From: Candidatus Thorarchaeota archaeon
GTDB taxonomy: Archaea > Asgardarchaeota > Thorarchaeia > Thorarchaeales > Thorarchaeaceae
NCBI GenBank assembly: GCA_038893995.1
Contig: JAWAQK010000052.1
Coordinates: 1-16,622, forward strand
DNA length: 16,622 bases
Direction: 5' to 3'
The notes under the pieces: model-generated
Told to the model about the DNA's origin: nothing
The model's input: the letters and a program-made list of their open reading frames with translations, nothing else
The model's database searches: none
Program-made: the position numbers and the translations under genes
Shown here: piece after piece, positions 1 through 16,427 of the stretch
Layout: each line of letters begins with the position of its first letter
Numbering within the stretch: position 1 is the stretch's first letter

Positions 1-2858
1 CGCGTCTTCTCATATGCTGCGTGGCTCATCCTCTGTGTCTTTCGGCGCTGCGCCAATTGCTTAAGCCCAGCCTTTGCGCCAGCCACCTTCTCGTCCTGGA
101 GTTCCAGCTGACCAACGATATCTCTGTATCTGGCGCCATAGGACATCAGCTTTTCCTTCAGTTTCGTGATCTTCTCTGTCGTTTCGTCCAGCTGTGCCTT
201 GAGGTCGCGTTCACGTATCATGAATTCCTTGCGAGTGACTTTTCCTCTTGATTGGTCAGTCTGAAGCTTCTCATATTCAAGCTCAAGTGCAGTTCTCTTT
301 GAGTAAGCATCTGTGAAAGACTTGATTACGTCAGGGGGTGCCAGTGCTTGCTTCGCCGAGGACACTGTTGGTTCAACAGGGGTAGTCTCCGTCGCTTCGT
401 GACGACGACGTCGGTAGACGACGTATACAGTCATCACAGAACCTATGAGTGCCGCAAACAGCACAGGACGTAACAGTACACCTGCGGACACATTGTATGT
501 CAACGATATCTCAAGTGGATTCTGAACGGTAGAATTGTAGCCAACGAATCGTAAAGTGTAGTCATGGAAACCATAGAGAAGTCTGTAGTCCCCTGCAATT
601 TCAACAATGGATACAGATGGCGCTACTCTGAGATCAACAACATGCTCTACCACAAGCAGGTCACCCAGAGTAGTCATCGGTAGAGTGATGCTCATACCGT
701 TGGTAGTGGGTTTGGAGTGCTTGGACAGTAACACACTGTACTCGACGTAGAAGGTGTAGCTGGTCTTAGGTCTGAAACCGTTCTCCCCAAATCGGTCTCG
801 CATGAGGTTGACTGTATGGGAAAGCGTGCTGTTCCACTCACGGTCAGCACTGGGCATCGAGTTCGATAGCAGCCCCACCCGATCGTAGATTCTGATGTAG
901 GTCGCAAACGCGGGGAAAATGAGCGGGATAGTGTTCTCCTTGGAATTGGCATGGTTGGTTATAGTGATTGTTTCCTTGTAAGATATCCAGCCCCACGCAT
1001 CGAGTACGATCTCACTGTGCTGCACGGCAGTCAGATAAGGATAGATTGACTTCAGTACGATCACTAGTTCCTCATGGGTCATTGGCGCGATGTTCTTTCG
1101 AACTCCTTCTGGAGAAGTACCCTGTATAGACTCTCCGCTCTTCAATGCAAACGACAGGGCGGCACGAGTGAGCAGATGAGGGACTAGAGGATATCGGAGG
1201 ACCCTCAGCTCAAACAGGTTTTCTGTGAAGTTGACAAGCCGTTGAACTGAATGGAGATGGGTGGTCACTGTCAATCTGTAGTCAGACCCGTAGCCTACAG
1301 ACCTGAAGAAGTATACACGCCAACACATGAAACTATCTGAGTCAGGTAACCTCACAACACTGAGGGTCTTGTCCTCGCTGTCCTTTGCACTGATTGATAG
1401 CAGATAATCCCGATAGTTGGTCGGCAAATAGTACTCGATTGCACCTATAGGAGCCGATCCATTGTTAGTCACAGTAAAGAGATCCGCAATGCTCACCTGA
1501 TGGTAGACCATGGTAGTGATGGTGCGTGTCACTCCAAGGATCATCCCACGCAGTGGAGATAGAAAAGACCCGATTGTGACGTTCATTGAAACCAGACTGG
1601 TCTTTCCTGACGCATCTGTAGCATTGACATACAGCGTGTAGTTGCCTCCTTCGTACTTGGTGATGTCGATGTTCAGTGTCCAGAGATGAGTCTGAAAGTC
1701 GTATTTGACTGAAACCCAGCTCTCGTTGTTGAGCTTGCATGATACACGTCGAACAAGCGTGTTGTCAGTCACGTTTGCACGCAAGTTGAGAGCCCATCGA
1801 AGTGTCTCATTCGCGAGGGGACTCTCCAGCGATATTTTGGGGAACTCGTTTGGAACAAACCTGACGAGCAGCGGAGATGACCAATCAGTGTGCTGAGTGG
1901 GGAGTGTGGAGAAGTCATCTGCAGTACCATACATCAGTACCATTGGGTACACACTGTTCGTGCCATTCAGCAGAGGTATGTCAAATGGATCGGTCGAGTT
2001 CATCCTGATGAAGAACTCTACGTGCGTGAATGAAGATGTCCCTGTGGCACCAGCTCTGATGATGAGGCTCTGGTCACTGTCCTGAGCATGGGCAAATGTC
2101 CCAATACCATGTCTATCGCTGCGGACAACAGCACCCGATTCTGCAGGATTGTTGTAGTCCTCGCCGATACGGATCAGGGTGACAACATACTCAAGGTCTT
2201 CCCCGTATAGGGTATCGGTGGGTTTAGTGTAGGCCTGTGCTGCTGGAATTATGAATCGCTTGACCTCTCCGACCCTCATACCGATGATTGCATCCTTGTA
2301 GGCTTGGAGCAGGTTCTCGTCCTTGAGAGGAGTCTGTGAACTTTCAGACGGAGCGTAGCCCTGTTGGAATAGAGTTCCGTTCCGAAGATACAACTTGTAT
2401 TGCACCGTGACAACATCGTTCTGAGTCACACGACGAACCTGAGTGTATGGGTTGCCGGGGGCATAGCCCATCACAATATCGCTGTTGTTCAGCCCTGCGA
2501 CAGTGAAGGTGCCGTTGGGAGCTTGCCATGCCGCGCCCACCCAGCCTCCAGCAGGAGATGAGAGACCCATGAAGAGCACAGTAGAGTTGTGTTCCATGTA
2601 GATTGTGACCCTAGAAGTGGGGTCGGTATATCTAAAGGCATACTCGGTGGGATCAATAATACCGTCAGCAGATCCGTAGTGAGCATCGACGTAGGGTACG
2701 TCAAGAACTGTGGACTGGGCGATGATGCCTTTGAAGTTCCGCGATGTGCCTTCCCAACCGGTAGATGCAACATCGGTGACTGCCAGTGTTGGAATGTTAA
2801 CTACGGTCAAGAAAACCAACGAAAGAGCAATTACGGCTCTCAAACGGAAAGCACTCAA
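1..2858 (-). CDS. Ribophorin I (OST1/RPN1)-like type I membrane protein with N-terminal DOMON-like domain (FKBP inserted) and Ig-like domain; 3' end lies outside the window
   Basis: Manual translation gives no stop from TTG 2858 to base 3 (952 codons). GGTGA SD at 2865-2869, with in-frame TGA TAA just upstream. Signal peptide MSAFRLRAVIALSLVFLTVVNIPTLA. DOMON-like motifs DGIIDPTEY, GWVGAAW, NSDIVMGY, VEFFIRMNSTDPFD, TQH. FKBP segment VTQNDVVTVQY...AIIGMRVGEVKRFIIPAAQAY...GEDLEYVVTLIRI. Ig-like PKISLESP...GNYTLYVNATDASG. Ribophorin-like motifs VTRTI...DLFTVTNNG, IVLDAWGWISYKETITITN, FPAFATYIRIYDRVG, RF...YTFYVEY. TM helix VLLRPVLFAALIGSVMTVYVVY followed by RRRR, then a charged helical tail. 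Confidence 0.85.
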   Translation of the reverse strand, partial: MSAFRLRAVIALSLVFLTVVNIPTLAVTDVASTGWEGTSRNFKGIIAQSTVLDVPYVDAHYGSADGIIDPTEYAFRYTDPTSRVTIYMEHNSTVLFMGLSSPAGGWVGAAWQAPNGTFTVAGLNNSDIVMGYAPGNPYTQVRRVTQNDVVTVQYKLYLRNGTLFQQGYAPSESSQTPLKDENLLQAYKDAIIGMRVGEVKRFIIPAAQAYTKPTDTLYGEDLEYVVTLIRIGEDYNNPAESGAVVRSDRHGIGTFAHAQDSDQSLIIRAGATGTSSFTHVEFFIRMNSTDPFDIPLLNGTNSVYPMVLMYGTADDFSTLPTQHTDWSSPLLVRFVPNEFPKISLESPLANETLRWALNLRANVTDNTLVRRVSCKLNNESWVSVKYDFQTHLWTLNIDITKYEGGNYTLYVNATDASGKTSLVSMNVTIGSFLSPLRGMILGVTRTITTMVYHQVSIADLFTVTNNGSAPIGAIEYYLPTNYRDYLLSISAKDSEDKTLSVVRLPDSDSFMCWRVYFFRSVGYGSDYRLTVTTHLHSVQRLVNFTENLFELRVLRYPLVPHLLTRAALSFALKSGESIQGTSPEGVRKNIAPMTHEELVIVLKSIYPYLTAVQHSEIVLDAWGWISYKETITITNHANSKENTIPLIFPAFATYIRIYDRVGLLSNSMPSADREWNSTLSHTVNLMRDRFGENGFRPKTSYTFYVEYSVLLSKHSKPTTNGMSITLPMTTLGDLLVVEHVVDLRVAPSVSIVEIAGDYRLLYGFHDYTLRFVGYNSTVQNPLEISLTYNVSAGVLLRPVLFAALIGSVMTVYVVYRRRRHEATETTPVEPTVSSAKQALAPPDVIKSFTDAYSKRTALELEYEKLQTDQSRGKVTRKEFMIRERDLKAQLDETTEKITKLKEKLMSYGARYRDIVGQLELQDEKVAGAKAGLKQLAQRRKTQRMSHAAYEKT

Positions 2859-2940
2859 GTCTTATCACCGGTTCGTCGTCAGTCTGCCTTCAGGGAGCAC
2901 CCCTACTGAGGCGCGAACAATCCGCCCAACATGTGGTCCG

Positions 2941-2956
2941 TTAAAATAGGTTTCGG
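2941..2956 (-). promoter_or_regulatory. Putative BRE/TATA element for the ribophorin-like gene, within the divergent intergenic region
   Basis: Minus strand reads CGAAACC-TATTTTAA about 85 nt upstream of TTG 2858. A plus-strand A-rich tract (CGAAAAAGGTAAAA, 2991-3004) may serve the divergent gene. Confidence 0.35.
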
Positions 2957-3031
2957 ACGTTGAGGAGTCGTACCGATACCCCAGATGATTCGAAAAAGGT
3001 AAAACTGAGTTTCCAGAGGTCCGCCCTAGAC

Positions 3032-4057
3032 ATGATGCAGCTACTGATTGTGGCCGCAGTTGCGTTCCTGGTAGTCATCTGTGTGACACCCACGACAATG
3101 CGGATACTTCGTGAAAAGGGAATCATTGGGGTAGATGTGCATAAACCATCAAAACCCGAGATTCCAAGAGAGGGGGGAGTTGTGATTCTCTTTGCGATGA
3201 TTGTGTCACTACTCTTCATACTGGGCACGGAAACTTTTGTTGGTAGTGGACGAGTGAGCCTCAACTTGCTTGCTGCACTTGTCGCCATCTTGATGGCAGG
3301 AATGGTTGGACTGCTTGACGACTTTCTTGACTTCAAGAACAGGACAAAGATCGTTCTACCGCTCGTTGCATCAGCTCCACTGGCTGCGCTACAGGTAGGT
3401 GTCACAAGTATGGACCTTCCAGTACTGGGAAGGATTGAGCTTGGGCTAGTATACCCCCTGCTTGTAGTTCCCCTGATGGTCACATTCATCATTGATTCGA
3501 CAAACATGTATGCAGGCATGAACGGACTAGAATCTGGACTTGCTCTCATCAACTCGTCCGCTATCATCGCATATCTAGTTCTTCGTACGACAACTGGCCT
3601 TCCACTGACTCAGGCGCAACTTGATGCCGGCCTCATTGCAGCTGCAGTAGCTGGTGCAACGGCTGCCTTTCTATTCTACAATCATTTTCCCGCAAGGGTA
3701 CTATCGAGCGATGTTGGTCTCCTTGCCATTGGAGCAGCTATCGCATCCTCGCTCGTGATCGGGAACATGGACAGGCTAGCAATATTTCTCTATTTCACAT
3801 TCGGGATCAACTTCCTGATGTATATCGTCTATCGTCTTGGGCACAGACCCGGTACTGACAGGTATGCGAAGTTTGCATCACCCAGGGAGGATGGCACATT
3901 AGAAGTAGTTGGTCCCTACACGATGTATTGGCTGATCCCCTATCTCCACCGCTCTACGACCGAATCAATCAATGTGATCCTGTTGCTTCTTCTTCAGGCG
4001 GTCATAGCATATGGGGCGGTCTACATCCTCGTCTTTGGAGTTCCCTTCGTCAGGTGA
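3032..4057 (+). CDS. aglH: UDP-GlcNAc:dolichyl-phosphate GlcNAc-1-phosphotransferase-like protein (AglH/DPAGT1/Alg7; MraY/WecA glycosyl transferase family 4)
   Basis: Polytopic membrane protein with GIIGVDVHKPSKPEIPREGG, GLLDD, NMYAGMNGLE (DPAGT1-type NxxAGxNGLE) and FYNHFPARVLSSDVG. ATG 3032 (GAGGT at 3016-3020) is preferred over the ORF-track TTG 2960. Confidence 0.85.
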   Translation: MMQLLIVAAVAFLVVICVTPTTMRILREKGIIGVDVHKPSKPEIPREGGVVILFAMIVSLLFILGTETFVGSGRVSLNLLAALVAILMAGMVGLLDDFLDFKNRTKIVLPLVASAPLAALQVGVTSMDLPVLGRIELGLVYPLLVVPLMVTFIIDSTNMYAGMNGLESGLALINSSAIIAYLVLRTTTGLPLTQAQLDAGLIAAAVAGATAAFLFYNHFPARVLSSDVGLLAIGAAIASSLVIGNMDRLAIFLYFTFGINFLMYIVYRLGHRPGTDRYAKFASPREDGTLEVVGPYTMYWLIPYLHRSTTESINVILLLLLQAVIAYGAVYILVFGVPFVR

Positions 4058-5117
4058 ACTCCGCGAGTTTGGTCGACAGGTATTCGTCTACCACGAAGTC
4101 CATGCCGTATCGACTGAAGGATTGTTGCTCGGCCTTCCGTCGAAGCTCTCGGAACTCATGGAGATGATGTTGCCAATCCGATGTCATATAGCGGGGGTCG
4201 GCACTCAGTTCATCTAGACGCTTCAGGTCCAGATCGTTCATTGCTTCGGTGGGCAGTGAGTACTCCCTTATGTCGGATGCTGTCACTCCGATCCATTTGG
4301 CATCAGGTACTGCCAGATCCGGAATGTGTGCAGCATTGGCACTCCCTGAAATAATGACTTGTGCAATGTGCATGCCCCACGGGTCACCATCAGTAAATAT
4401 CACGACAGGAAGTCCGAGTTCCATCCTCAGACGACGCATGAACCGGCGCGTAGACCTTGGAGCCTGACCGCCAAGGTGAATCAGTATTGCGTCGAATCTA
4501 TCAAACGCACCGGTTTCGATGAGACGAGAGAACATACCACCAGACTCAACGGCTAGTATTACCCTCGCATCAGACGAAACTATCTGTGCGGACATCATGG
4601 CAGGGCCAACCGGCAATCCGTCAGGGCTTATGGTCAGGTCGATCTCTCGCCCCTCATATCCAGGTACATTGTACTTTAGAGTTACGCGACCATAGATCGA
4701 CGAGTGCTCTTCCGGGAAGACACCCATGTCTTCTCTGGGTACGCCTATGAGAGCTTCAAGATCAGTCACTGCCTTATCTGACTCGGCCTGGTCCTTGAAC
4801 TTCACACCAAATGCCTCACTAGAGTAGTACAGGTCCCTGAGGGAACTGGTCCGACCTGTCTTGAGTAGTTGCTTGACATACCAGGCGACCCAGATTATCT
4901 GGGCAAAGCTCCGGACATGGCGGAGGTTCCCAGAGCTTCGTGTGGTATATGACTCCCCAAGGCGTATCTGCTCGCCAGGTTCAGCAAGAGATAGATTACC
5001 GGTTCCTCTCTCGGGGATTCTCAGTACGGGAAACTCCCCACGAACGATAGAGTCAACCACGTCTCGACCCAATGAGCTCAACCGGTCTACAAGTGCGGAC
5101 ACGTCATTCATCTTCAT
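4050..5117 (-). CDS. top6A: DNA topoisomerase VI subunit A
   Basis: Catalytic Tyr motif LRDLYY, TOPRIM Glu in AVESGG, DxD in FTDGDPWG, and C-terminal KAEQQS. Start is ATG 5117 or 5111, overlapping the end of top6B. Confidence 0.96.
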   Translation of the reverse strand: MKMNDVSALVDRLSSLGRDVVDSIVRGEFPVLRIPERGTGNLSLAEPGEQIRLGESYTTRSSGNLRHVRSFAQIIWVAWYVKQLLKTGRTSSLRDLYYSSEAFGVKFKDQAESDKAVTDLEALIGVPREDMGVFPEEHSSIYGRVTLKYNVPGYEGREIDLTISPDGLPVGPAMMSAQIVSSDARVILAVESGGMFSRLIETGAFDRFDAILIHLGGQAPRSTRRFMRRLRMELGLPVVIFTDGDPWGMHIAQVIISGSANAAHIPDLAVPDAKWIGVTASDIREYSLPTEAMNDLDLKRLDELSADPRYMTSDWQHHLHEFRELRRKAEQQSFSRYGMDFVVDEYLSTKLAEFT

Positions 5118-6618
5118 TCGCCTCTGTGCGCGATAGTAATACATTGATGTCAGGAACAGGTCTATCCCCTAACTGTGCACCGAAATGAGCAATCAGACGC
5201 AATGCTCTTACAAACTCCCTGTAGGCTCTTGTATTCTTGGGACTGTCAGATGCCGAAGGTCGACCTATCCTCAGACGACGACCAACCCGTCTGAACAGGG
5301 AAACAGCGGCATCCTCAATCTCCTCAACTGCGGCTATCGAATGCTTGCCTGCAGCATGGTAAGGGATTCTCGAGGAACATACATGAACAAACAGAGCAAC
5401 GTTCACATTGTCAGTTCCAATTCCGTACTTCGGCCAGTTCACCCGCTTGAGCGCTCTCGTGAGTACGTCTTCAGATGCATCGTAAAGGAGAGGGGTCCGA
5501 TTTGCAAATCTGAACAGCAATGGAAAATCAGATGACTGGAATTCGGAGCTAGTAGCCCCAACGGCCTCAACTACGAAGGGATTCCCGTCCCAGTCCCCCC
5601 TTTCCGACTCATAGTATGCAGTTTCACACTTGTAGGAACCAACCACTGCTCTCAAGAAAGATTCTTTGCCTATCGGACTTAGGAACCTCGTACTAGGTCT
5701 GGGAAAACCATCATAACTCCTCAGTGCTTGGCTGAGTCGAAGGAGGTCGCTCCGAGTCATTCCTCCAACTCTCATCGAGGGATCAATGCCAATGAATCCC
5801 AGGAATCGTCTTGAGATGGCTCGGCTCATGCACTGGAAATTCTGAGTTAGGAATACGATCAGCTTTGTCTCCGGACTAGTATTCGCTACAAGCCTCCGAA
5901 TGAGCTCCGGGTCTGCAGAGCGGGGGTGAGGACGCATGGGCACTGTGGGAGGGGGAATCTTATCGACCCAGGGTCCGAAGATTCCCTGTGATACTCCATC
6001 CACGACGAGTTGAACTCTGGCATGAGGAGCGGAAACGGATGTGAGCCGTACGTAGTCCAGGAGCCTTGCACGACTTCGTGCCAGATCGCCCTTGATCTTC
6101 AGCGAAACAGTCGTGCCGGGATGATCCCTTGGTACCGACTCCACAGACTCGACTATGGGTATATTCTTCTCGATATCGATGAGAAGTCGGTAGACTCGAC
6201 CCTGATTGGGTACAGTAGAGGTGTGTACCTCGACTGGACACCCTGTGGTTATCTGTGAGTAAAGGACGGCCATTGTCACTCCCAGGCCCAGAGATCCCCT
6301 CTTCTGTCTGAAGGAATACTTGCTACCATATAGGACCTGTGCAAAGGACTCTGCAACATGCTCATCCGGCACACCGGTACCATTGTCAGCAACCGAGATC
6401 ACTACGGTCCCATTTTCATGAGAATCGATTCGGACAAGTACTACCGGGGGTACTCCTGCATCCTCACACGCATCAAGGCTGTTCTCGACGAGCTCTCTCA
6501 CACAGGACACTACAGCTTGGACGGGATTACCAAATCCCGCCATCTGACGGTTTCTATAGAACAACTCCGAGGGGGTTATGCTCATGAACTGCGATGGGGG
6601 ATACTGGTCCTCGGTCAT
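5104..6618 (-). CDS. top6B: DNA topoisomerase VI subunit B
   Basis: GHKL motifs RELVENSLDA, DNGTG and GSKY...RGSLGLG. Transducer motifs RFANRTPLLY, WPKYG and IPYHAAGK. SD-like AGGTGGA at 6627-6633. Confidence 0.96.
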   Translation of the reverse strand: MTEDQYPPSQFMSITPSELFYRNRQMAGFGNPVQAVVSCVRELVENSLDACEDAGVPPVVLVRIDSHENGTVVISVADNGTGVPDEHVAESFAQVLYGSKYSFRQKRGSLGLGVTMAVLYSQITTGCPVEVHTSTVPNQGRVYRLLIDIEKNIPIVESVESVPRDHPGTTVSLKIKGDLARSRARLLDYVRLTSVSAPHARVQLVVDGVSQGIFGPWVDKIPPPTVPMRPHPRSADPELIRRLVANTSPETKLIVFLTQNFQCMSRAISRRFLGFIGIDPSMRVGGMTRSDLLRLSQALRSYDGFPRPSTRFLSPIGKESFLRAVVGSYKCETAYYESERGDWDGNPFVVEAVGATSSEFQSSDFPLLFRFANRTPLLYDASEDVLTRALKRVNWPKYGIGTDNVNVALFVHVCSSRIPYHAAGKHSIAAVEEIEDAAVSLFRRVGRRLRIGRPSASDSPKNTRAYREFVRALRLIAHFGAQLGDRPVPDINVLLSRTEANEDE

Positions 6619-6919: not shown

Positions 6920-7483
6920 TTAGAGAGTTGGTTCCCAGATCTCGGCGCGCTCACGGTTCATCTCACGCCTCATTCGCTCGAGATAGCGATATACGACGGC
7001 ATGAGGAGCACCCTCGACAAGCATCGAAACAGCACGGGATGCATAGTCCAGATTGGGGTATGTTCCTATGAGTGACACTGTGTGCCCGTAAACTGAGAGC
7101 CTTACCTCTGCAGTTGACTCAATGAACCTCTTTGTGCGACCCCGTTCGCCAATAATACGACCTGCAACTCTACGTATCTGGTTGGGAGAGGAGCCCACCA
7201 GATCTCTCAGCGAGATCACCACTAGGTATGAGTCATCGTCAATCAGGGCGAAGGCCCCTTTCGGACTGAAGCCCCTAGCCATCGCCTGAATGATATCGCG
7301 AGCCTTCCATGCCATTACTGCGCCATCTTGATTGGAACCCGCAGAGATCGTCACAAGCCCGTCTGATCCTACCTCGATCTTACAGTTGGTGAGAGACTCA
7401 ATTCTTCTTCTGACTGCTCCATCCCTACCTACAATCACACCAATCCGGTCTTCAGGAACTCGTATTGTCTCGTGGATCGACAT
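6920..7483 (-). CDS. KH-domain pre-rRNA processing protein (archaeal Dim2/Pno1/Krr1 family)
   Basis: Two GxxG KH motifs (RIGVIVGRDG, GRIIGERGRT), plus KARDIIQAMARGFSP and SVYGHTVSLIG...GAPHAVVY. ATG 7483 with GGTGA at 7492-7496. Lies downstream of rio1, as in many archaea. Confidence 0.92.
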   Translation of the reverse strand: MSIHETIRVPEDRIGVIVGRDGAVRRRIESLTNCKIEVGSDGLVTISAGSNQDGAVMAWKARDIIQAMARGFSPKGAFALIDDDSYLVVISLRDLVGSSPNQIRRVAGRIIGERGRTKRFIESTAEVRLSVYGHTVSLIGTYPNLDYASRAVSMLVEGAPHAVVYRYLERMRREMNRERAEIWEPTL

Positions 7484-8246
7484 CTGATGTTTCACCAGGG
7501 TTGACTATCATATCGAGTATCTCAGTGGGTTCCTCCGTCTCGACGCCCAGCTTACGGAAATAGTTCGTAATGTTTTTAATGTCACGGAACAGGTACTGTA
7601 GCGCGTTATTGTGAGACCTGAGAACGGCCTGTGCAACATCGATGAAAACTGGGCCGCCGTACCATATTATGTTATACTCGCTTAAGTCGGCATGGACAAG
7701 ACCCGCTTTCCTGTAGGCATCTATCAAGAAACGCAAGATCTGCTCGTAAACCAGCTCTGGTTCCTCGAGATGAACGTGGCGCAACAGCGGGGCTGCTACG
7801 CCATTCACAGCGTCACCAATGAACTCCATCACGAGCACATTCCGCTCGACCTCAATTGGCTTGGGGACTCTGATTCCTGCGTCGCTGTAGAGCTTTAGGT
7901 TTCGAAACTCCTTCATTGCCCAGATGGGCACTATCGTCTTTGACTGTCGAGGTACCCGAGTGTAGCGCGGATCGCCTAGAAGGTACTCCAGCATGTACTC
8001 CCGCTGGGCAGTAGCAACACGATAGACCTTCACCGCCACTGACTTACCATCCTCAGTTTCGCCCCTGTAGACATTTGCTTCCTTGCCTGAGCTCACTACA
8101 CCGTGTAGAGCCTTGAACAGTCCCTTGTTGGACAGCCGATAGAGTTCCTTTAGCGTAATCGGATCGAGAACTCCCTCAACTACCTTGAGCTCATCCTGGT
8201 CCTTCAACCGCTTGGACATACGACGTTCGATTTCAGCATCTATCAT
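7452..8246 (-). CDS. rio1: RIO-family Ser/Thr kinase/ATPase Rio1
   Basis: SSGKEANVY P-loop, AVKVYR, LVHADLSEYNII catalytic loop, FIDVAQAV. The true start may be CTG 8273 (see findings). Confidence 0.95.
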   Translation of the reverse strand: MIDAEIERRMSKRLKDQDELKVVEGVLDPITLKELYRLSNKGLFKALHGVVSSGKEANVYRGETEDGKSVAVKVYRVATAQREYMLEYLLGDPRYTRVPRQSKTIVPIWAMKEFRNLKLYSDAGIRVPKPIEVERNVLVMEFIGDAVNGVAAPLLRHVHLEEPELVYEQILRFLIDAYRKAGLVHADLSEYNIIWYGGPVFIDVAQAVLRSHNNALQYLFRDIKNITNYFRKLGVETEEPTEILDMIVNPGETSDVDPRDNTSS

Positions 8247-8346
8247 GCGTGCCTTTGTGCGGATCCGCTTCAGCCAATATCACCTGCCTCACACCAATCA
8301 TCAGTGTACCTGCAGAGGGACGGCATAGGTGTCTGAAGACCGCGCG

Positions 8347-8676
8347 TCAAAATGACTTCAGAATACCATGCCTCTGTAACCATTCAACCTCATTGTTGCG
8401 ATACCGCCAGACCACATCGCACTTGGCCTCAGCCTGAAAGTCCCAGGGGACCACGAGCACCATGTCACCAACTCGCATCCAGACTCTCTTCTTCATACGT
8501 CCTGGTATCCGGCCTATTCGAATCTCTCCATCTTCGCATCTGACACGGACCCTGTCGTATCCGAGCATCTGCATGATCACTCCAAACATCTCACCTTCGT
8601 CACGGTTGGGAGTTCTCACTCGGACGGGCTCGGCCTCAGTTGACGTTTCGTTCTCACTATCACGAATACTAGGCAA
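8347..8676 (-). CDS. eif1a: Translation initiation factor 1A (aIF-1A)
   Basis: GEMFGVIMQMLGYDRVRVRCEDG...RIPGRMKKRVWMRVGDMVLVVPWDFQ...KCDVVWRY. Start is probably TTG 8676 (GGAG 8 nt upstream); TTG 8694 is the alternative. Confidence 0.96.
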   Translation of the reverse strand: MPSIRDSENETSTEAEPVRVRTPNRDEGEMFGVIMQMLGYDRVRVRCEDGEIRIGRIPGRMKKRVWMRVGDMVLVVPWDFQAEAKCDVVWRYRNNEVEWLQRHGILKSF

Positions 8677-8737
8677 TAGATACTCTCCGCTCAACGGGAT
8701 GACCGTTTGGTTAGGTGTTCAGTTGAGATGGCTGAAC

Positions 8738-8744
8738 ATTTAAG
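8738..8744 (-). promoter_or_regulatory. Putative TATA box upstream of aIF-1A
   Basis: CTTAAAT on the minus strand in the short nmd3-eif1a spacer. Confidence 0.35.
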
Positions 8745-8759
8745 CGTACCGAACCAGAT

Positions 8760-9848
8760 TCAGGCAGGGGGGTCAGGAGATGTGTCAGAGTTCGGAAGGA
8801 CGTAGAACTCCTCGCCCACAGTGACTCCATCAACTTCATCGCCAAGATGCACAGGCGAAATAAATCGCTCCGCCTCCACTTCCAGTGTGTGAAAGCTCTC
8901 CATGTCCATTAGATGATACGGACCATTGTATCCCTCTGCAACGACTGTATACTTTCGCCTCTCACTAGCGGGTCTCAGGAACTCTACGGACTTCCACTTT
9001 GGGCTCTTGAGATTGAGTGAGAATCTGCATCCAGTCCTTAGATTCTGACATCCCATCGATCCATGTCCTGATGAGAGTATCACACACGGCTGACCGTCAA
9101 CGCTCACGATGTCACCAGCTGTGAATCGGGGAAGTCGCAACATAATCGTGACACGAAACTTCCGTCGGCCTCCCTTGTCTTGCGTGATCAGTTTGAAGTT
9201 CTCCTTCCTCTCTGCAAGAAATGTCCTCTCAAGTTCGTCACCTATCTTCTTGGCAAGGCGGCTAGACCCAACCTTGAAGTCGATACCATATCGATTACGT
9301 TCAACGTCAGAAACGTACGCCCTTGGATCGGTACCGTACTCCGCAATGGTCCGATCAGTCACCAGCTGAAGTACACGAGTGGCTTCCTCATCGGTTATCT
9401 CGCGATTCTCTGCACGGACCTGGATTACTGCCTCATGGTAACCGCCTCTCATCATCGCACAGGTGTCACACATGACATGGTCGATGCGTATCTCTACAGG
9501 GTGCCGCTCAACATGAGGAGACAGACTCTCGTGCGAACATCCTCTCGCTACGAGTACAATCCGGATGACGCTGTCCAGCTTCTTGACTTCATCGATGCCT
9601 ATCTCAACATTGGTTCCAAGCACCTCGATGTCCTGATGCTCGATTGCAGCGAGTAGCCGCTCCTCCAGGGAATCAGCTTCACTCACATGACTCCACCCGC
9701 TCGCTGTCTTGAGTGCACCGCAGTTCTTGCACATCACAATAGAAACTGACTGCCTGGTCTTCAATAGGGGATGAGAGGCCCTGTAGCAGTCAGCACACAT
9801 ACCTCCAACAATGCTCGGGAGGCCACAGACAAAGCACCTGGAAACCAA
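8760..9848 (-). CDS. nmd3: NMD3-family ribosome biogenesis protein
   Basis: Four CxxC pairs (CFVC, CADC, CKNC, CDTC), GGYHEAVIQVR, GIDFKVGS, RKFRVTIMLRLP, and a C-terminal eIF5A-like OB segment (HLMDMESFHTLEV). TTG start with a GGGGTGAG SD. Confidence 0.93.
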   Translation of the reverse strand: MVSRCFVCGLPSIVGGMCADCYRASHPLLKTRQSVSIVMCKNCGALKTASGWSHVSEADSLEERLLAAIEHQDIEVLGTNVEIGIDEVKKLDSVIRIVLVARGCSHESLSPHVERHPVEIRIDHVMCDTCAMMRGGYHEAVIQVRAENREITDEEATRVLQLVTDRTIAEYGTDPRAYVSDVERNRYGIDFKVGSSRLAKKIGDELERTFLAERKENFKLITQDKGGRRKFRVTIMLRLPRFTAGDIVSVDGQPCVILSSGHGSMGCQNLRTGCRFSLNLKSPKWKSVEFLRPASERRKYTVVAEGYNGPYHLMDMESFHTLEVEAERFISPVHLGDEVDGVTVGEEFYVLPNSDTSPDPPA

Positions 9849-9898
9849 GTCAACTCACCCCAGAATTAGTCTGTGCAGGTCTGAGTCTTCTGATCTTG

Positions 9899-10198
9899 CT
9901 AGAGCCGTACCCACTGGGCGTGAGGCTCACCATCTATGTAGAGGACTGCCTCTTTGCTGATGAGTCCTCTGTTGATGGCTGCTGTGACCGTCGTCTTTCC
10001 CACCATGTTCACAATTGTCGCTCTTTTCAGATGAGTCATGCACGTTTCTATATCGACAAGTTCTCCACCGTAAAACTCCTCACTGACTCTGAATACTAGG
10101 TTGCCCTGAATGAGTGTCTTTCCTAGGAGGGACTTGTCGCATACCGCTACAAGATAATGGTCAAATGTTTCACGAACACGCATGTAGACAGACTCCAC
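9899..10198 (-). CDS. DUF424 family protein
   Basis: LVAVCDKSLLGKT...VSEEFYGG...ATIVNMVGK...VLYIDGEPHAQ. GTG 10198, with GAGGTG 6 nt upstream, avoids overlap with aIF-2beta. Confidence 0.9.
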   Translation of the reverse strand: MESVYMRVRETFDHYLVAVCDKSLLGKTLIQGNLVFRVSEEFYGGELVDIETCMTHLKRATIVNMVGKTTVTAAINRGLISKEAVLYIDGEPHAQWVRL

Positions 10199-10212
10199 CG
10201 TTCGCACCTCTG

Positions 10213-10626
10213 CTAGATTGGTCTTATCGAGGTCTTGGCGCCACAGGCAGAGCACACGAGATAGTATGCAGAATGTTCACGCACCTCATTGGTGTCGGGT
10301 CGACCACACACTGGGCATATCACGTACTGCTCGATATAACGTTTCAGGACTGCATCAACGACATCCGCTTCAAACTTGCCATTGAAGACCGCACGAGAGC
10401 CCTCGATATTGCCTGCAGTCGCCAGCTGGCCTGAGATATACTTGAGAACTGCCTTCCCTGGTCTGTTCAATATCGAAACAATGTCCTGAAAGTTCTGCCA
10501 GATACTTCTGCTTCCCTGAACAAGGATCTCAACTTCAGGGACTTGGAATCTCTCTCCAGAACGTCGAAAGGCGTCGGGAGGAATCTGGGATCTGGCTCTC
10601 TCAAGCAGCTTCTCGTAGTCGTCCAT
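10213..10626 (-). CDS. eif2b: Translation initiation factor 2 subunit beta (aIF-2beta)
   Basis: DYEKLLERA...ERFQVP...NFQDIVSILNR...LATAG, and a C2-C2 zinc ribbon YVICPVCGRPDT...CSACGA. GGAGGTG SD. Confidence 0.96.
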   Translation of the reverse strand: MDDYEKLLERARSQIPPDAFRRSGERFQVPEVEILVQGSRSIWQNFQDIVSILNRPGKAVLKYISGQLATAGNIEGSRAVFNGKFEADVVDAVLKRYIEQYVICPVCGRPDTNEVREHSAYYLVCSACGAKTSIRPI

Positions 10627-10675
10627 GGCTTATCAGACACCTCCAATCATTATTGAACCTGTTGTTCATTCACAC

Positions 10676-11413
10676 CTAGGCCGGCAAATAGACCCCTACC
10701 GTGACCTCCCGTATCTTGCGCTCCTCTAGGAGGTCAATCACGTGCATGTTGACGTCAGAAGCCCCGACCCCACGGCTCTTAAAGTAGTTGGCAATCTCGT
10801 CTATTGAAACTCCCTGACGACCTGCACGTGACTTTATGAACTGGAACACTTGATCACGTGGTGTTCCTCCAATTCCAGTGAACTCAGTCGACTGGGATGT
10901 GTCTATATCTGCACGTGATGTCGACGAAACTGTATCTGACAAACCGACACTGTCAAGCATTTCAGACTCGGCACGAACTTGGATATCAGTGTATGGGATA
11001 CTGCCCGACCTGAGTACCGTTCTAATTCGCTCAAGCCTATGAAGAGTCAGGTAGTTCGGATCAGGTAGCTCCCTGACTATCTCTGGATCCAAGTACACCT
11101 CATTTCCTATCTGCCGAACACGTCCCACCGCGATTACCAACGAGTCAGCCTGCACAGATGTCAACAGTCTGATCTTGGAGGGGTCGGAATCCCATGCTTT
11201 CAGCTGGATTGTCTCGGTACCATCGTCCACTGTCAGACTTGCATATTCCCGCTCTCTCTTTGTGTGCACCTGGGATACCACGTAGCCAACGATCACAGCT
11301 CTTCGTACCTCAACTCCGTAGCGTGTCACTACCCTCGAGACATCGGTCTTGTCAAATCGTCCGGAGACGAGGTCCTCTACAAGAACTCGGACTGCTGAGA
11401 TACGTTCCTGCAT
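10676..11413 (-). CDS. RPA32/RPA2-like ssDNA-binding protein (OB fold, S/T-rich linker, C-terminal winged helix)
   Basis: VRRAVIVGYVV...ASLTVDDGTETIQLKAW...VIAVGRVRQ...VYLDPEIVR...DPNYLTLHRLE. The linker is followed by RDQVFQFIK...GVSIDEI...VIDLLEERKIREVTVGVY. Confidence 0.85.
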   Translation of the reverse strand: MQERISAVRVLVEDLVSGRFDKTDVSRVVTRYGVEVRRAVIVGYVVSQVHTKREREYASLTVDDGTETIQLKAWDSDPSKIRLLTSVQADSLVIAVGRVRQIGNEVYLDPEIVRELPDPNYLTLHRLERIRTVLRSGSIPYTDIQVRAESEMLDSVGLSDTVSSTSRADIDTSQSTEFTGIGGTPRDQVFQFIKSRAGRQGVSIDEIANYFKSRGVGASDVNMHVIDLLEERKIREVTVGVYLPA

Positions 11414-11451
11414 GCTTCAGAGCTTCCCAACCAAGTGATTTGCCATCAGGC

Positions 11452-11459
11452 TATATATT
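11452..11459 (-). promoter_or_regulatory. Putative TATA box for the RPA32-like gene
   Basis: AATATATA on the minus strand about 40 nt upstream of ATG 11413. No obvious SD. Confidence 0.4.
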
Positions 11460-11493
11460 GTTCTCCCGCACTTTCTGACATTTGTCATAGGCA

Positions 11494-12525
11494 TCAGAAG
11501 AAGTCCGTCAAGGAACTCTGAGAAGAAGTATCACGTTCACTCATGACTTCTATCAGATGAGTCAGGGATGACCTGACACGCTGTTGACTGAAGTTGTGCT
11601 CATCACACAGCAGCGCGCAGACAGCATCTGTATCGGGTAGGCCCCATCTCAGTGAGGACACCTCCATGCGTGGGGGCTTGAGGAAGATCTCGCGTATCTC
11701 ATCTATTGGAATGTCGATCTGAATTGCCTTAGCCTCGATGATTTTCTCTATGCGACCATACTCTCTTATCAGTCTGAGAGCGGTCTTGGGACCCATTCCT
11801 GGGACCCTGTCGTTGTAATCAGTGCCCACGAGTATTGCGACATCGACAAGCTGTTCACGGGATATGCCTAGACTCCTCAGGTTTGTTTCGAGGTCAATCA
11901 GCTCGGGAGAAACTGTCTTGTATCCTCTTGAACCAGCCACCCTCCTGCGCCCGCTGATGGTGAGGTTTCGTATCAACCGGGGCGAGTTGTAGAGTAGGGA
12001 GTCACTATCCTGACTTGCACTGGCCCAAACGACCCCATCGCGTGCCATCTGAGCAGCAAGTGCCTCGCCTTCGGAAGGGGCCTGTACGAACGGGACTCCT
12101 AGAGCCTCAAGAAGGGTCTTGCTCTCAGCAATCATCTCACTCGTGAGTCTTGAACTGGCATGAGCGGCCTTGAGGGCATCTTCTGTCCTCCCCTCTGCAA
12201 GAGCACTCATCCACTCTTCGTATGCAGCTTCTCGGATTGCACGTCTCCTCTCTACCTCTGGTGCCTTGAGTTTCGGACTCTCTCCATCGTAGACGTACAC
12301 TGGTTGAATTCCATTCTCAAGTAGACTGACCGTCCTGTAGAAGAGACCGCTGAGATGACTGGTGATTCGCCGCTGCTGGTCCATCAGGGGGGTACCATCA
12401 GGTTGGCGAATGGTGGCCAGGAACTGGTAGAGAGTGTTGAAGGCGTCGATCGATATTGCGCGTCCAGACAGGTCACCTAGAGTGATTACCTCAGCAGTAA
12501 TGATCTCACCAAGTCTAGTACCCAA
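11494..12525 (-). CDS. fen: Flap endonuclease 1
   Basis: IDAFNTLYQFLATIRQPDGTPL, TSHLSGLFYRT, PVYVYDG, APSEGEA, SQDSDSLL, LVGTDYN, GMGPKTA, and a C-terminal PIP box QSSLTDFF. TTG 12525 gives the canonical MG- N-terminus. Confidence 0.97.
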   Translation of the reverse strand: MGTRLGEIITAEVITLGDLSGRAISIDAFNTLYQFLATIRQPDGTPLMDQQRRITSHLSGLFYRTVSLLENGIQPVYVYDGESPKLKAPEVERRRAIREAAYEEWMSALAEGRTEDALKAAHASSRLTSEMIAESKTLLEALGVPFVQAPSEGEALAAQMARDGVVWASASQDSDSLLYNSPRLIRNLTISGRRRVAGSRGYKTVSPELIDLETNLRSLGISREQLVDVAILVGTDYNDRVPGMGPKTALRLIREYGRIEKIIEAKAIQIDIPIDEIREIFLKPPRMEVSSLRWGLPDTDAVCALLCDEHNFSQQRVRSSLTHLIEVMSERDTSSQSSLTDFF

Positions 12526-12563
12526 ACGATTGCCCCCTGACAACAACACTGTTGCCCGATCAG

Positions 12564-12620
12564 GTAATATATGGTTTGGTGATTGAGGGCAATTCATGAC
12601 AGTTCGGCAGGTTTATAAAA
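12564..12620. promoter_or_regulatory. Divergent promoter region between fen and the Zn-ribbon/EF-1beta unit
   Basis: ATATATTA on the minus strand (12564-12571), about 40 nt upstream of fen. TTTATAAAA on the plus strand (12612-12620), about 52 nt upstream of ATG 12672. Confidence 0.55.
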
Positions 12621-12671: not shown

Positions 12672-12845
12672 ATGTCAATGAGGGCCATCAGATGTACGTC
12701 TTGTCACAGATCAGTGTCTCCACTCAGTAACAATGTCAAGTTCAACTGTCCTCAGTGCGGAAGCTTTGTGATATGGCGCTGTGAGTCGTGTCGGCGGTTC
12801 TCAATAAGATACACATGCCCAAGCTGTGGATTTGAGGGGCCTTGA
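12672..12845 (+). CDS. Small Zn-ribbon protein (DUF1610/COG2888, HVO_2753-like), 57 aa; missing from the ORF track
   Basis: MSMRAIRCTSCHRSVSPLSNNVKFNCPQCGSFVIWRCESCRRFSIRYTCPSCGFEGP has four CxxC motifs and the family's GFEGP end. AGGTGA SD at 12657-12662. Directly upstream of EF-1beta. Confidence 0.93.
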   Translation: MSMRAIRCTSCHRSVSPLSNNVKFNCPQCGSFVIWRCESCRRFSIRYTCPSCGFEGP

Positions 12846-12858
12846 GCAGGTGAGAGAA

Positions 12859-13125
12859 ATGGCAAGAGTGATCATGACAATAAGAATAATGCCGGAGGAC
12901 ATAGACGTAGATCTGGACAAGTTGCGAGAAAAGGTAAAGAAGTGCTTACCTCAGGGAACAGACCTCAGGGCAACCGAGATAGTTCCAGTCGCATTTGGTC
13001 TAAAGGCACTAAGGGTCAATCTGGCCAGGGACGAAGCACTTGGCGGAACAGACGACATCGAGGCGGCAATAACGGCCATAGATGGCGTTGCCCAAGTCGA
13101 TGTCGAGATGATCTCGAGAATATGA
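12859..13125 (+). CDS. ef1b: Elongation factor 1-beta
   Basis: MARVIMTIRIMPEDIDVDLDKL...PVAFGLKAL...GGTDDIE...IDGVAQVDV. ATG 12859 with AGGTGA SD. Confidence 0.96.
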   Translation: MARVIMTIRIMPEDIDVDLDKLREKVKKCLPQGTDLRATEIVPVAFGLKALRVNLARDEALGGTDDIEAAITAIDGVAQVDVEMISRI

Positions 13126-13443
13126 AAGCTCGATGTTTCTGAGGAAGTAATCGGCCAGTTGACGAAACCGAGCGGATGAATGAATCTCGGAAGTTTCGTA
13201 TCTTTGCTGATACTTGAAATCGCTCTGCACACACAGGGAAACAATTATCGAAGTTCGGTACTTTTTCAACAGACTGTGAGTACCAAGTATCACGTTCCTA
13301 CAGAAGAACTCGCCAAGTGGCCATGATGGATCTGACAGCTGGTACAAAGGATAAGCTAATTAGCGCACAGAAAGGAGCGGTAGTTGATACGGATGACGAG
13401 CGTAGTGACCTCCATTACTGAAGAGAGTTAAGGAGGCTAGGCA

Positions 13444-15657
13444 ATGGTTGAGGTAGTCCTGAAGGTCGCAGAAGCAGAGAACAGGGACATTGGCAGATTC
13501 TTGGTCCGCATCGACAGTGCAACTATGGAGAAACTGGGCGTCAGAACGGGAGACATTGTTCAGATAAGGGGAAAGCGAGTGACTGCAGCAATTGCGTGGC
13601 CTGCGTATCAGGGAGACAAGGGTAAGGAGATCATCCGGATGGATGGCAGAATAAGGAGAAATGCAGGAGTTGGCCTCACTGAGAAGGTAGTTGTCTCACG
13701 CATCACAGAAGAAGCTGCAAGGACTGTGACACTCGCCCCGACAACGACCCCGTTCCGGCCAGAACCTAGGTTTGAGGAGTTTATCAAGCGGAAACTACTC
13801 AACTGTCCTGTCACTGTGAACGATACCGTCTACATACCCATACTCAGCAGAGCCATCACATTCAAGGTGGCTGATGTGAAACCGAGCAGGACCGGCGTCG
13901 TGCAGCATGCAACTATCCTCAGCATTGCAGAGAAGCCAACTGGGGAAGTCACTGGCAGCTCCGAGGTCACATATGAGGACATTGGAGGACTATCAGAGGC
14001 CATACAGAGGATCCGAGAGATGGTAGAACTCCCCATGCGCCATCCTGAGTTGTTCAAGCGGTTGGGTATTGACCCACCCAGGGGAGTGATATTGCACGGT
14101 CCTCCTGGCACCGGCAAGACGCTGATGGCAAAGGCAGTGGCAACAGAATGTGACGCACACTTTGTTCATATCAATGGTCCCGAGATAATGTCCAAGTTCT
14201 ATGGCGAATCTGAACAGAAGCTCAGAAAGCTGTTTGAAGACGCTGAGGAGAACGCTCCGAGTATCATATTCATTGACGAGTTGGATGCCATCGCACCAAA
14301 GAGAGAGGAGGTACAGGGCGAGGTTGAGCGCAGGGTAGTTGCACAGCTGCTGGCGACTATGGACGGGCTGAAGTCAAGGGGACAGGTCATAGTCATAGGA
14401 GCAACAAATAGGGTCAATTCACTCGATCCAGCGTTGAGAAGACCTGGACGATTCGACCGCGAGATTGAGATAGGGGTTCCCGACGAGGCTGGTCGATTGG
14501 ACATACTCCAAATCCATACACGTGGGATGCCACTGACCTCCGAGGGAGAGGGCAAGGTGGACCTTCAACGACTAGCAAAAGACACACACGGTTTCGTTGG
14601 TGCTGATCTGCAGGCACTCTGCCGAGAAGCTGCAATGAAGGCCCTACGACGATACCTACCCGACATCCTGCCGAACATTGATGATAGTAGCGAGGAGATA
14701 CCTCAAGACGTACTGGAGAAGCTTGAAGTCAACAACAATGACTTCCAAGAGGCCTTGAAGGAGGTGATGCCATCCGCAATTCGCGAGGTCTTTGTCGAGA
14801 TACCAAACGTTCACTGGGAGGACATAGGAGGACTTGAGAAAGCCAAGCAAGAACTCCGGGAGGTAGTCGAGTGGCCCCTTAACAGACCCGACGTATTCAA
14901 GAGAATGGGAATAAGGCCGCCCAAAGGGGTGATAATCTGGGGACCTCCGGGGTGTGGGAAGACTCTCCTCGCAAGGGCAGTGGCAACGGAGAGTAAGGCC
15001 AATTTCATAAGTGTGAAAGGACCGGAGCTGATGTCCAAGTGGGTTGGAGAAAGCGAGAAAGGAATAAGAGAGATCTTTCGTAAGGCGCGCACCGCCGCTC
15101 CGGCGCTCATATTCTTCGATGAGATTGATGCAATCGCCCCGGTCCGCGGAAGGTCTGAAGGAGACAACCAAGTGACTGAGAGAGTCGTAAGCCAGCTCTT
15201 GACCGAGATGGATGGCCTCGAGAGTATGAAGGATGTTGTAGTGCTGGCAGCAACAAACAGGCCGATGCTCATAGACAGAGCACTGCTCAGAACCGGTCGT
15301 TTCGACAGATGGGTTTTCATTGACGCACCAGACGAAAAGAGCAGACTGGAGATTCTCAAGATCTACACGATCAAGGCGGGAATGCCACTTGACAGCGATG
15401 TGGACCTCGAGGAGTTAGCTCGAAGAACCGAGAACTATGTGGGAGGAGATATCGAGGCACTCTGCAGAGAGGCTGCGATACTTGCACTCCGAGAGTCTAA
15501 CATGGAGGCGGAGAAAGTTTCCTGGCGTCATTTTGAGGAGGCAATGGCAGGCATGCAAGCATCGGTCACTAAGGAGGACATCGAACGTTACAGAGAACTC
15601 GACAAACAGTTCCGCAGAGCCCGAGACAACATCTCTGTGAAATCGGGAGTAATATGA
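13444..15657 (+). CDS. cdc48: CDC48/VCP/VAT-family AAA+ ATPase
   Basis: Double-psi barrel N domain. D1: [28 protein letters not shown]2: [25 protein letters not shown]. Pore loops KFYG and KWVG. AAGGAGG SD. Confidence 0.98.
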
Positions 15658-15675
15658 TCGGGAGGTGAGTTTCAA

Positions 15676-15936
15676 ATGGCAACATGGACCGCAGTGCCCC
15701 TGAGAAACCTGATACTCAGCATTCTGAAGAAGCGCCATGGCATGATACTAGACGACGAACTCGAGAGGGCCATCACACAGGAAATGGGCAATCAGCCCAG
15801 TGAGAGTGAGCTCAATGCTGCGCTGATGCAGCTCGAGATAAAGGGCCTGATTCACGTCAGCCAGATCATGAAGACCAAACGGCGGATCGAAATCATTGGT
15901 GAGGGGCACGAGTTTCTTGCTGTTGACGAAGACTGA
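15676..15936 (+). CDS. Small winged-helix-like hypothetical protein, probably co-transcribed with cdc48
   Basis: Strong GGAGGTGA SD; starts 18 nt after the cdc48 stop. The pattern LRNLILSILKK...DDEL...ESELNAALMQLEIKGLIHV fits a wHTH. Acidic C-terminus LAVDED. Confidence 0.75.
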   Translation: MATWTAVPLRNLILSILKKRHGMILDDELERAITQEMGNQPSESELNAALMQLEIKGLIHVSQIMKTKRRIEIIGEGHEFLAVDED

Positions 15937-15959
15937 CAGCTTCACGGAGGATGTCGTAG

Positions 15960-16427
15960 ATGCCCGGAATTCGAGTGATGGCTGCAGGTAAGTTTGACAT
16001 CCTCCATCTTGGGCATCTGGCCTACCTCGAACAGGCCAAGGATCTTGCAGGGCAAGATGGTGAACTTGTTGTTGTAATCGCACTTGACAAGACAATTGAA
16101 AGAGAGAGAGGAGTACCTCCAGTCTTTCCTCAGGACCAGAGACTCCGGATTGTGAGTGCGCTGAAGGTCGTGGATGAGGCTGTTCTAGGCTATGACACTG
16201 ATGACCATACCGCAATAGTCAGAGACCTGCGACCGGACATAATTGCCCTCGGATACGATCAGCATACAGACATGGATGCACTCAGGAGGTGCATTGTCGA
16301 GGCGGGACTAGACACCAGAATCGTGAGGCTCAACAAGAGAGACGAGGGGGGACTATGCTCCTCCTCCCTCATCAGGAGGAGGATCATCGAGAATTATGCG
16401 GAGAATAGAGTCCCACGCCTCATATGA
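15960..16427 (+). CDS. ribL: Archaeal FAD synthase (cytidylyltransferase superfamily)
   Basis: RVMAAGKFDILHLGH (HxGH), LVVVIALD, RLRIVSALKVVDEAVLG, PDIIALGYDQ and CSSSLIRRRI, with two C-terminal Cys as in RibL. GGAGG SD. Confidence 0.85.
   Translation: MPGIRVMAAGKFDILHLGHLAYLEQAKDLAGQDGELVVVIALDKTIERERGVPPVFPQDQRLRIVSALKVVDEAVLGYDTDDHTAIVRDLRPDIIALGYDQHTDMDALRRCIVEAGLDTRIVRLNKRDEGGLCSSSLIRRRIIENYAENRVPRLI

Follow-up and report, generated by a model that had tools for sequence, protein, structure and literature searches.

The window analyzed here, a 16,622-nucleotide (nt) stretch of a Candidatus Thorarchaeota genome (GCA_038893995.1, contig JAWAQK010000052.1, C52), carries at one end a gene for the ribophorin I (OST1) subunit of oligosaccharyltransferase (OST), to which an N-terminal head is fused. 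The head consists of a DOMON-like domain, an FKBP-type domain inserted into it, and an Ig-like domain. Fold, topology, single copy, and orthology to ordinary Asgard OST1 identify the protein as the OST1/ribophorin I subunit of Thorarchaeia, and membership in OST would follow from that orthology. While Asgard OST1 is already known, the fused form, derived within one order, is new. We consider it probable (about 0.6) that the head is a folding helper, namely a foldase or holdase tethered to OST or the glycosylating translocon.

Reading frame and domain organization

The fused gene forms a single open frame of 952 amino acids (aa) on the minus strand (2858..3), which begins with TTG and is still open where the contig ends. 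Because an in-frame TAA is located two codons 5' of the TTG at 2858, the start is fixed. A 99.8% identical assembly, GCA_038825165.1, continues past this break and connects C52 with contig C28 of the present genome via a 19-nt overlap, giving a complete fused protein of 981 aa whose final 29 aa are encoded on C28. The features of the gene are as follows.

2865..2869, minus strand: Shine-Dalgarno-like GGTGA, 6 nt ahead of the TTG, assigned from sequence
3..2858, minus strand: fused OST1/ribophorin I gene (aa 1-952 of 981)
2781..2858, minus strand: signal peptide (aa ~1-26), predicted from hydropathy (hydrophobic 1-30), with low model confidence at 1-48
2433..2705, minus strand: N-terminal half of the DOMON domain (aa 52-142), with an invariant acidic motif (D58/D65/G66/D69/E72) and L123 at the heme Met position
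2163..2432, minus strand: FKBP-type domain (aa 143-232), within a DOMON hairpin and lacking an insert-in-flap domain
1854..2153, minus strand: C-terminal half of the DOMON domain (aa 236-335), in which H257 and H323 are conserved
1563..1850, minus strand: Ig-like (Big_7) spacer domain (aa 337-432)
489..1553, minus strand: outer region of ribophorin I, two beta-sandwich lobes (aa 436-790), with the WG motif at 622-623
414..485, minus strand: single transmembrane (TM) helix followed by RRRR (aa ~792-815; hydropathy segment 790-814)
3..341, minus strand: cytosolic helical bundle (aa 840-952 and beyond), a homologue of the MK-D1 OST1 domain that binds ribosomes (8WHN)

Hydropathy and the distribution of sequons, which are present in the outer region and almost absent from the tail, show a type I membrane protein in which a signal peptide and an outer domain precede a single TM helix and a cytosolic tail. 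An AlphaFold2 model of the whole protein based on 94 sequences had a mean predicted local distance difference test score (pLDDT) of 84.7 and a predicted TM-score (pTM) of 0.55; the individual domains are thus reliable, but their mutual arrangement is not. The head modeled by itself reached a pLDDT of 94.2 and a pTM of 0.89. Pfam matched FKBP_C at 143-228 (E 3.5e-11) and Big_7 at 340-411 (E 2.6e-8). The original prediction, made from the letters of the window, had proposed a continuous minus-strand frame of at least 952 aa with FKBP and Big-type domains, an FKBP interrupting a DOMON-like domain, and the exposure of both on the outer face. The open frame, the two Pfam matches, the fold comparison described below (FKBP at aa 143-232 inside a DOMON domain at 52-336), and the topology agreed with it throughout, and each of its domain coordinates was right to a few residues.

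Identification of the protein as OST1

In a structure comparison of residues 433-952, RPN1/Ost1 chains were the top eight matches (Z 26.4-31.0, 366-458 residues aligned), with a root-mean-square deviation (rmsd) of 6-8 Å for chains without the tail, and Foldseek gave an E value of 1.8e-25 for the ribophorin part. The two tandem aminopeptidase-N-like beta-sandwich lobes matched RPN1/Ost1 as a unit. In contrast, N-terminal sandwiches of aminopeptidases matched one lobe only with Z ~13, and this gap (26-31 vs ~13) ruled out a generic S-layer or aminopeptidase identity for aa 433-952. Sequence identity to RPN1/Ost1 was 13-18%. A profile of ordinary Asgard OST1 matched the fused family with a probability of 100 (E 2.6e-60, 498 columns), and the tail matched the cytosolic domain of MK-D1 OST1 (8WHN) with an E value of 2.5e-9. 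This bundle is the most conserved region of the fused protein (0.76), and W622-G623 is invariant across the 94 homologues. The ribophorin I homology at about 443-790 and the WG motif at W622, both anticipated from sequence, are thereby established. Furthermore, the alignment begins at residue 25-29 of RPN1/Ost1, indicating that the thorarchaeal head sits ahead of their mature N-terminus, in keeping with the earlier statement that eukaryotic RPN1 has no such extension.

When the ordinary Asgard OST1 profile was run on the genome, which is 91% complete, the fused gene was the sole match and no second OST1 was found; the fused gene is therefore the orthologue and not a spare copy. The Pfam Ribophorin_I model (PF04597) is too insensitive here and matched neither the fused protein nor any other protein of the genome, whereas it was reached by the homologue P0009 (27.4 bits, cut-off 25) and passed by all five ordinary Asgard OST1s tested. 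Because OST1 of Asgard archaea ranks among the eukaryotic signature proteins, it matters that the thorarchaeal ribophorin part can escape Pfam.

Distribution and age of the fusion

We found 99 database proteins of 839-996 aa that cover 85-100% of the fused query; those with names are mostly from 'Candidatus Thorarchaeota' and are annotated solely as FKBP-type isomerase or hypothetical protein. The ribophorin part occurs in 73 of the 76 genomes of the family and in the only genome of the sister family, nearly always in one copy. In 64 family genomes it lies in single frames of 981-1233 aa, and nine shorter frames fit contig breaks. Although the gene is located at a contig end of a metagenome-assembled genome, which would suit an assembly chimera or a read-through artefact, the 99 proteins and the 64 single frames keep an identical domain order and the G + C content is flat along the gene (49-52%). 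The homologous sequences already refute a chimera, to which we assign a negligible probability; with about 100 homologues of the same order and the gene in nearly all family genomes, the fusion can be regarded as genuine, as had been claimed.

The survey of the architecture across Asgard genomes, suggested in the original prediction, gave OST1 matches in 41 genomes of other families, all in frames of 638 aa or less, and no DOMON-FKBP-Ig head was found on OST1 in the 14 of these that were examined. In an unrooted tree of 26 rows, the fused forms made up one branch with a support of 100/100. Most of the head was matched by just eight among 1.84 billion representative sequences, the named ones being Thorarchaeota or one record labelled Lokiarchaeota. 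Because the head is lacking in other Asgard OST1s and the fused forms are a single branch, the fusion appears derived and not an ancestor of endoplasmic reticulum (ER) quality control. On this sequence evidence, the head is confined to one order and is most simply a lineage-specific gain, a side branch paralleling the eukaryotic helpers; the earlier proposal of a possible archaeal precursor of ER quality control did not hold as ancestry.

A single-contig genome of 86% completeness (G236) gave no match to OST1, the head, or the GPT gene described below with these queries. Its STT3 tail lies in a 206-aa frame, and both observations may reflect frameshift errors or missing DNA.

Linkage to N-glycosylation genes

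A Glycos_transf_4 gene, which we take to be by family a GPT/ALG7/AglH enzyme initiating lipid-linked glycan synthesis, stands head-to-head with the fused gene.

2859..3031: short stretch separating the divergently oriented fused and GPT genes, a candidate bidirectional promoter
2960..4057, plus strand: Glycos_transf_4 (GPT) gene, true start probably ATG 3032
G000:C2:79923-82658 (L072:82-2820), minus strand: STT3/AglB, 912 aa, the sole one found in the genome, with a DOMON-like end at aa ~742-912

This head-to-head arrangement was found in 71 of 74 genomes, and the remaining three carry the two genes on separate contigs. The conservation of this pairing supports the predicted link of the fused protein to N-glycosylation. 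In two further Asgard lineages (L040:3500-4852 and L037:11343-12326), ordinary OST1 has a GPT-like open reading frame (ORF), judged by its N-terminus alone, at a distance of 1-3 kb, suggesting that the linkage may predate the fusion.

The STT3 of the genome has an intact WWDYG motif, and an OST3/6 gene lies ~4 kb off. Its DOMON-like tail of ~170-187 aa occurs in 72 of the 76 family genomes and in the sister family, with no match of that strength in any other family searched. The tail and the OST1 DOMON are distant relatives (probability 94), compared with 99.9 for the OST1 DOMON and Met/His DOMONs, and a recent duplication linking the two was rejected on this basis. As Asgard STT3 frames vary by family from ~680 to 1360 aa, tails are common, with large appendages in several lineages, and the parallel gain of DOMON domains by OST1 and STT3 is suggestive only. 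When the OST1 head (aa 48-432) and the outer domain of STT3 (aa 506-912) were modeled as a complex from 48-row alignments, the score was 0.00, which counts neither way. Searches of the genome for TRAP-beta and OST48 gave sub-threshold matches only, and no DOMON-bearing OST48 was found among 25 OST48-like loci.

The FKBP, DOMON, and Ig parts of the head

The FKBP fold was confirmed by PF00254 (43.7 bits, cut-off 21.1) and by structural matches to SlyD (Z 12.4, rmsd 1.8), FKBP2 (Z 11.9), and FKBP11 (Z 10.6, rmsd 2.0). Conservation of the pocket columns was 0.88 compared with 0.70 for the entire domain. In a pocket numbering that comes from sequence alignment and is uncertain for the 40s-loop positions, the equivalents of Y26, Y82, and L97 and a Pro within the 40s loop are invariant in the 94 sequences, the W59 equivalent is Y in all 94, the F99 equivalent is Y in 92, and the I56 equivalent is L. 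The sister-family form retains D37 in a GTIFD motif together with an ordinary pocket. With seven residues between Y210 and LYG and a domain length of ~90 aa, the SlyD-type insert-in-flap chaperone domain is absent. The fused FKBP is the sole exported one found in the genome; the other FKBP_C match has a far lower score and is apparently a cytosolic SlyD-type protein.

The DOMON fold spans model residues 52-336 around the FKBP, which stands in place of one DOMON hairpin turn. It matched EbdC (Z 15.7, rmsd 2.9, 168 aligned), NxrC (Z 14.9), the DBH DOMON (Z 13.2), and CBM9 (Z 12.4), along with a DOMON cluster (TM-score 0.53). Once the FKBP was cut out in silico, the DOMON aligned to Pfam-positive Asgard Met/His DOMONs with a probability of 99.9, while the Pfam DOMON model, too insensitive here, gave no match in the genome. 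The heme Met position is Leu in 89 and Ile in 5 of the 94 sequences, whereas H323 is kept in 89 and H257 in 92; with the Met gone and the His kept, the residues indicate that the fused DOMON is not a Met/His cytochrome. A sequon (N124-N-S126) adjoining the lost Met position is conserved in 92/94 and may cover the DOMON pocket. Membrane-anchored Asgard DOMON proteins with Met/His heme ligands were also observed (L063:2457-3626 and L064:4449-6161, both plus strand), and in a tandem form of such proteins the second domain has Lys instead of Met.

The closest free FKBPs found are proteins of 175-250 aa with a signal peptide, an FKBP domain, and a TM helix. Many have a Cys-rich B-box-like cytosolic zinc finger and others a basic tail (L051-L060 and L066-L070; e.g., L052:5010-5636, plus strand), and they share the short flap signature YTxPxHxLYG with the fused FKBP. 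Their profile matched the fused FKBP at 1e-24 but the other FKBP of the genome at 2.5e-7. Three families, which include genomes labelled Heimdallarchaeota or Kariarchaeaceae, gave matches to it in 11/11, 21/21, and 27/28 genomes; among the matches listed, thorarchaeal family genomes were matched only across the FKBP part. The free heimdallarchaeal FKBPs resemble human FKBP11 in topology (signal peptide, FKBP, and TM). They may, although we consider it doubtful, also work at the Sec61/OST site as forerunners of FKBP11, and the fusion would then reveal, in the manner of a Rosetta stone, a translocon FKBP common to Asgard archaea; if so, the glycosylating translocon would have had a foldase before the ER existed.

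Proposed mechanism and alternative explanations

In the mechanism we favor, the fused OST1 and STT3/AglB would be membrane neighbors of the Sec61 channel, and the cytosolic bundle of OST1 would rest on the ribosome, as extrapolated from human, yeast, and MK-D1 OST1. The lineage has added the DOMON-FKBP-Ig head at the mature N-terminus, where the Ig domain and the DOMON sandwich may form a stalk and platform presenting the FKBP on the outer face. The FKBP would act as a weak isomerase or holdase and engage newly exported chains, at stretches that are unfolded or contain proline, while they are being N-glycosylated or immediately afterwards. One chain would thus provide what human cells recruit separately to the OST-A translocon, i.e., FKBP11 and, loosely, malectin. 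The fusion probably arose once, in the ancestor of the order, when an exported Asgard FKBP was combined with a Met/His DOMON whose Met was lost later. Peptidyl-prolyl isomerase activity, a DOMON ligand, and a physical place within OST are putative features of the protein. The folding-helper interpretation draws on the findings that human FKBP11 binds the OST-A translocon (PMC12804085) and that human ribophorin I behaves like a chaperone and is a binding partner of malectin (PMC3944493).

Several observations weigh against a folding helper. The D37 equivalent is Q in 76/94 and E in 17/94 sequences, the F36 equivalent is mostly I or L, and H87 is kept in 65/94, with Asp at that position in the present protein; given these changes, FKBP catalysis may be weak or lost. 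In human FKBP11, CCDC134 covers the active site, and the protein is interpreted by the authors as an adaptor and not as an isomerase (PMC12804085). The predicted placement of the head relative to the STT3 site is poorly constrained, the whole-model pTM being 0.55. In addition, the same head occurs in a few genomes on Ig/PKD-stalked proteins with a C-terminal TM helix and without ribophorin, indicating that the module is mobile and able to work away from OST1.

L061:4130-5887, plus strand: ribophorin-free head protein
L062:4534-6318, plus strand: ribophorin-free head protein
P0107 and P0110: further ribophorin-free head proteins

With regard to the pocket, the Y82 and F99 equivalents matter most in SlyD, and loss of the D37 equivalent merely halves kcat (PMC5034536). 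Because SlyD tolerates this loss, weak catalysis or peptide binding by the fused FKBP seems plausible from its sequence.

The main rival holds that the FKBP is a non-catalytic adaptor whose pocket binds one fixed partner, such as another translocon or OST subunit, the STT3 DOMON tail, or a surface-layer protein, and that the head caps the thorarchaeal OST in a structural or regulatory role. The changes of D37 to Q/E, F99 to Y, and W59 to Y and the invariant 40s-loop Pro, fixed across the 94 sequences, speak for this, as do the DOMON-like STT3 tail of the same lineage with its matching distribution and the precedent of FKBP11 with CCDC134 (PMC12804085). However, the sister-family form keeps D37 and an ordinary pocket, the most important catalytic aromatics are retained, and the head is portable to other stalks; we regard an adaptor as possible but unlikely. 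A role of the DOMON as the working part, i.e., a malectin-like glycan or small-ligand domain or a five-coordinate heme domain, recognizing the glycan donor or a chain that has just been glycosylated, with the FKBP secondary, appears improbable. Its superfamily binds heme or sugars (PMC4846438), CBM9 is among the fold matches, both His residues are well conserved, and OST1 and STT3 both gained DOMON-like domains in the lineage, but the nearest relatives are heme-type Met/His DOMONs and not CBM9, the Met is replaced in all 94 sequences, and the sequon beside its position may cover the pocket. That the protein has left OST and become a free-standing cell-surface foldase, with the ribophorin fold as mere stalk and anchor, is very improbable: the head on unrelated Ig stalks and the low identity to RPN1/Ost1 would allow it, whereas the genome yielded no second OST1, the cytosolic ribosome-binding bundle is the best conserved region, and the GPT linkage is maintained across the order.

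The fusion of a foldase domain to an OST subunit, fixed across a whole order, provides independent genomic support for the view that N-glycosylation is coupled to folding at the translocon, a coupling resolved structurally in humans in 2025 (FKBP11 and CCDC134; PMC12804085). It also draws attention to FKBP11-like candidates among the closest archaeal relatives of eukaryotes, and the well-modeled head is predicted to be a soluble 290-aa module for assay.

Other genes in the window

The minus strand at 4050-6618 carries the A and B genes of topoisomerase VI, of which B is short (504 aa). These genes adjoin the GPT/OST1 pair in most relatives examined and are missing there in G164 (L049). A run of ribosome-biogenesis and replication genes follows on the minus strand (6920-12597), comprising KH/Dim2-like, RIO kinase, aIF-1A-like, NMD3, DUF424, aIF-2beta-like, RPA OB-fold, and FEN1-like genes, some of these names being from sequence alone. 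The plus strand at 12826-16427 has an EF-1beta-like gene, a CDC48/p97-type AAA ATPase (737 aa), a small ORF, and a cytidylyltransferase/FAD synthetase-like gene.

Comparison with known systems

The literature searched, with subscription journals outside it, contained no paper describing a ribophorin I with an FKBP/DOMON/Ig head, in line with the original prediction, which knew of no description of it. Thorarchaeota, FKBP, and DOMON are not mentioned in PMC11417166 and its supplement; FKBP is absent from the texts and supplements of Eme 2023 and Carilo 2024, and DOMON is absent from their supplements.

The OST1 of MK-D1 ('Ca. Prometheoarchaeum syntrophicum', 607 aa; PMC11417166) likewise has a signal peptide, a two-lobed outer region, one TM helix, and a homologous cytosolic bundle, a domain (8WHN) that pulls down ribosomes (PMC11417166). 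It lacks the DOMON-FKBP-Ig head, and the thorarchaeal protein is ~385 aa longer at the N-terminus. Human RPN1 (8B6L chain O and 6S7O chain E) and yeast Ost1 (6EZN chain A) share the fold over model residues 433-952, but the folding helpers of human and yeast are separate proteins, whereas the FKBP is fused in thorarchaeal OST1.

The DOMON fold is shared with EbdC (2IVF), NxrC (7B04), the CDH cytochrome domain (1D7C), and the DBH DOMON (4ZEL), with Z 11.8-15.7. The His position is common to the Asgard Met/His heme-type DOMONs and the thorarchaeal one, which differs in being split by the FKBP and in having Leu or Ile for Met. The malectin-ribophorin I complex (PMC3944493) also places an outer-face ligand-binding beta-sandwich on ribophorin I; however, malectin belongs to a different family and is attached non-covalently, unlike the covalently attached thorarchaeal DOMON, for which sugar binding is putative. 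Human FKBP11 (PDB 9N9J and 9YGY; PMC12804085) has its FKBP on the lumenal face adjoining OST, a placement that the thorarchaeal head would share, but it is a separate protein with its own TM helix, a basic ribosome-binding tail, and a pocket buried by CCDC134. The likeness to FKBP11 is one of fold and of predicted placement; FKBP2 and SlyD fit the thorarchaeal FKBP equally well or better. Taken at the level of sequence, the fusion parallels ER quality control and is not its precursor.

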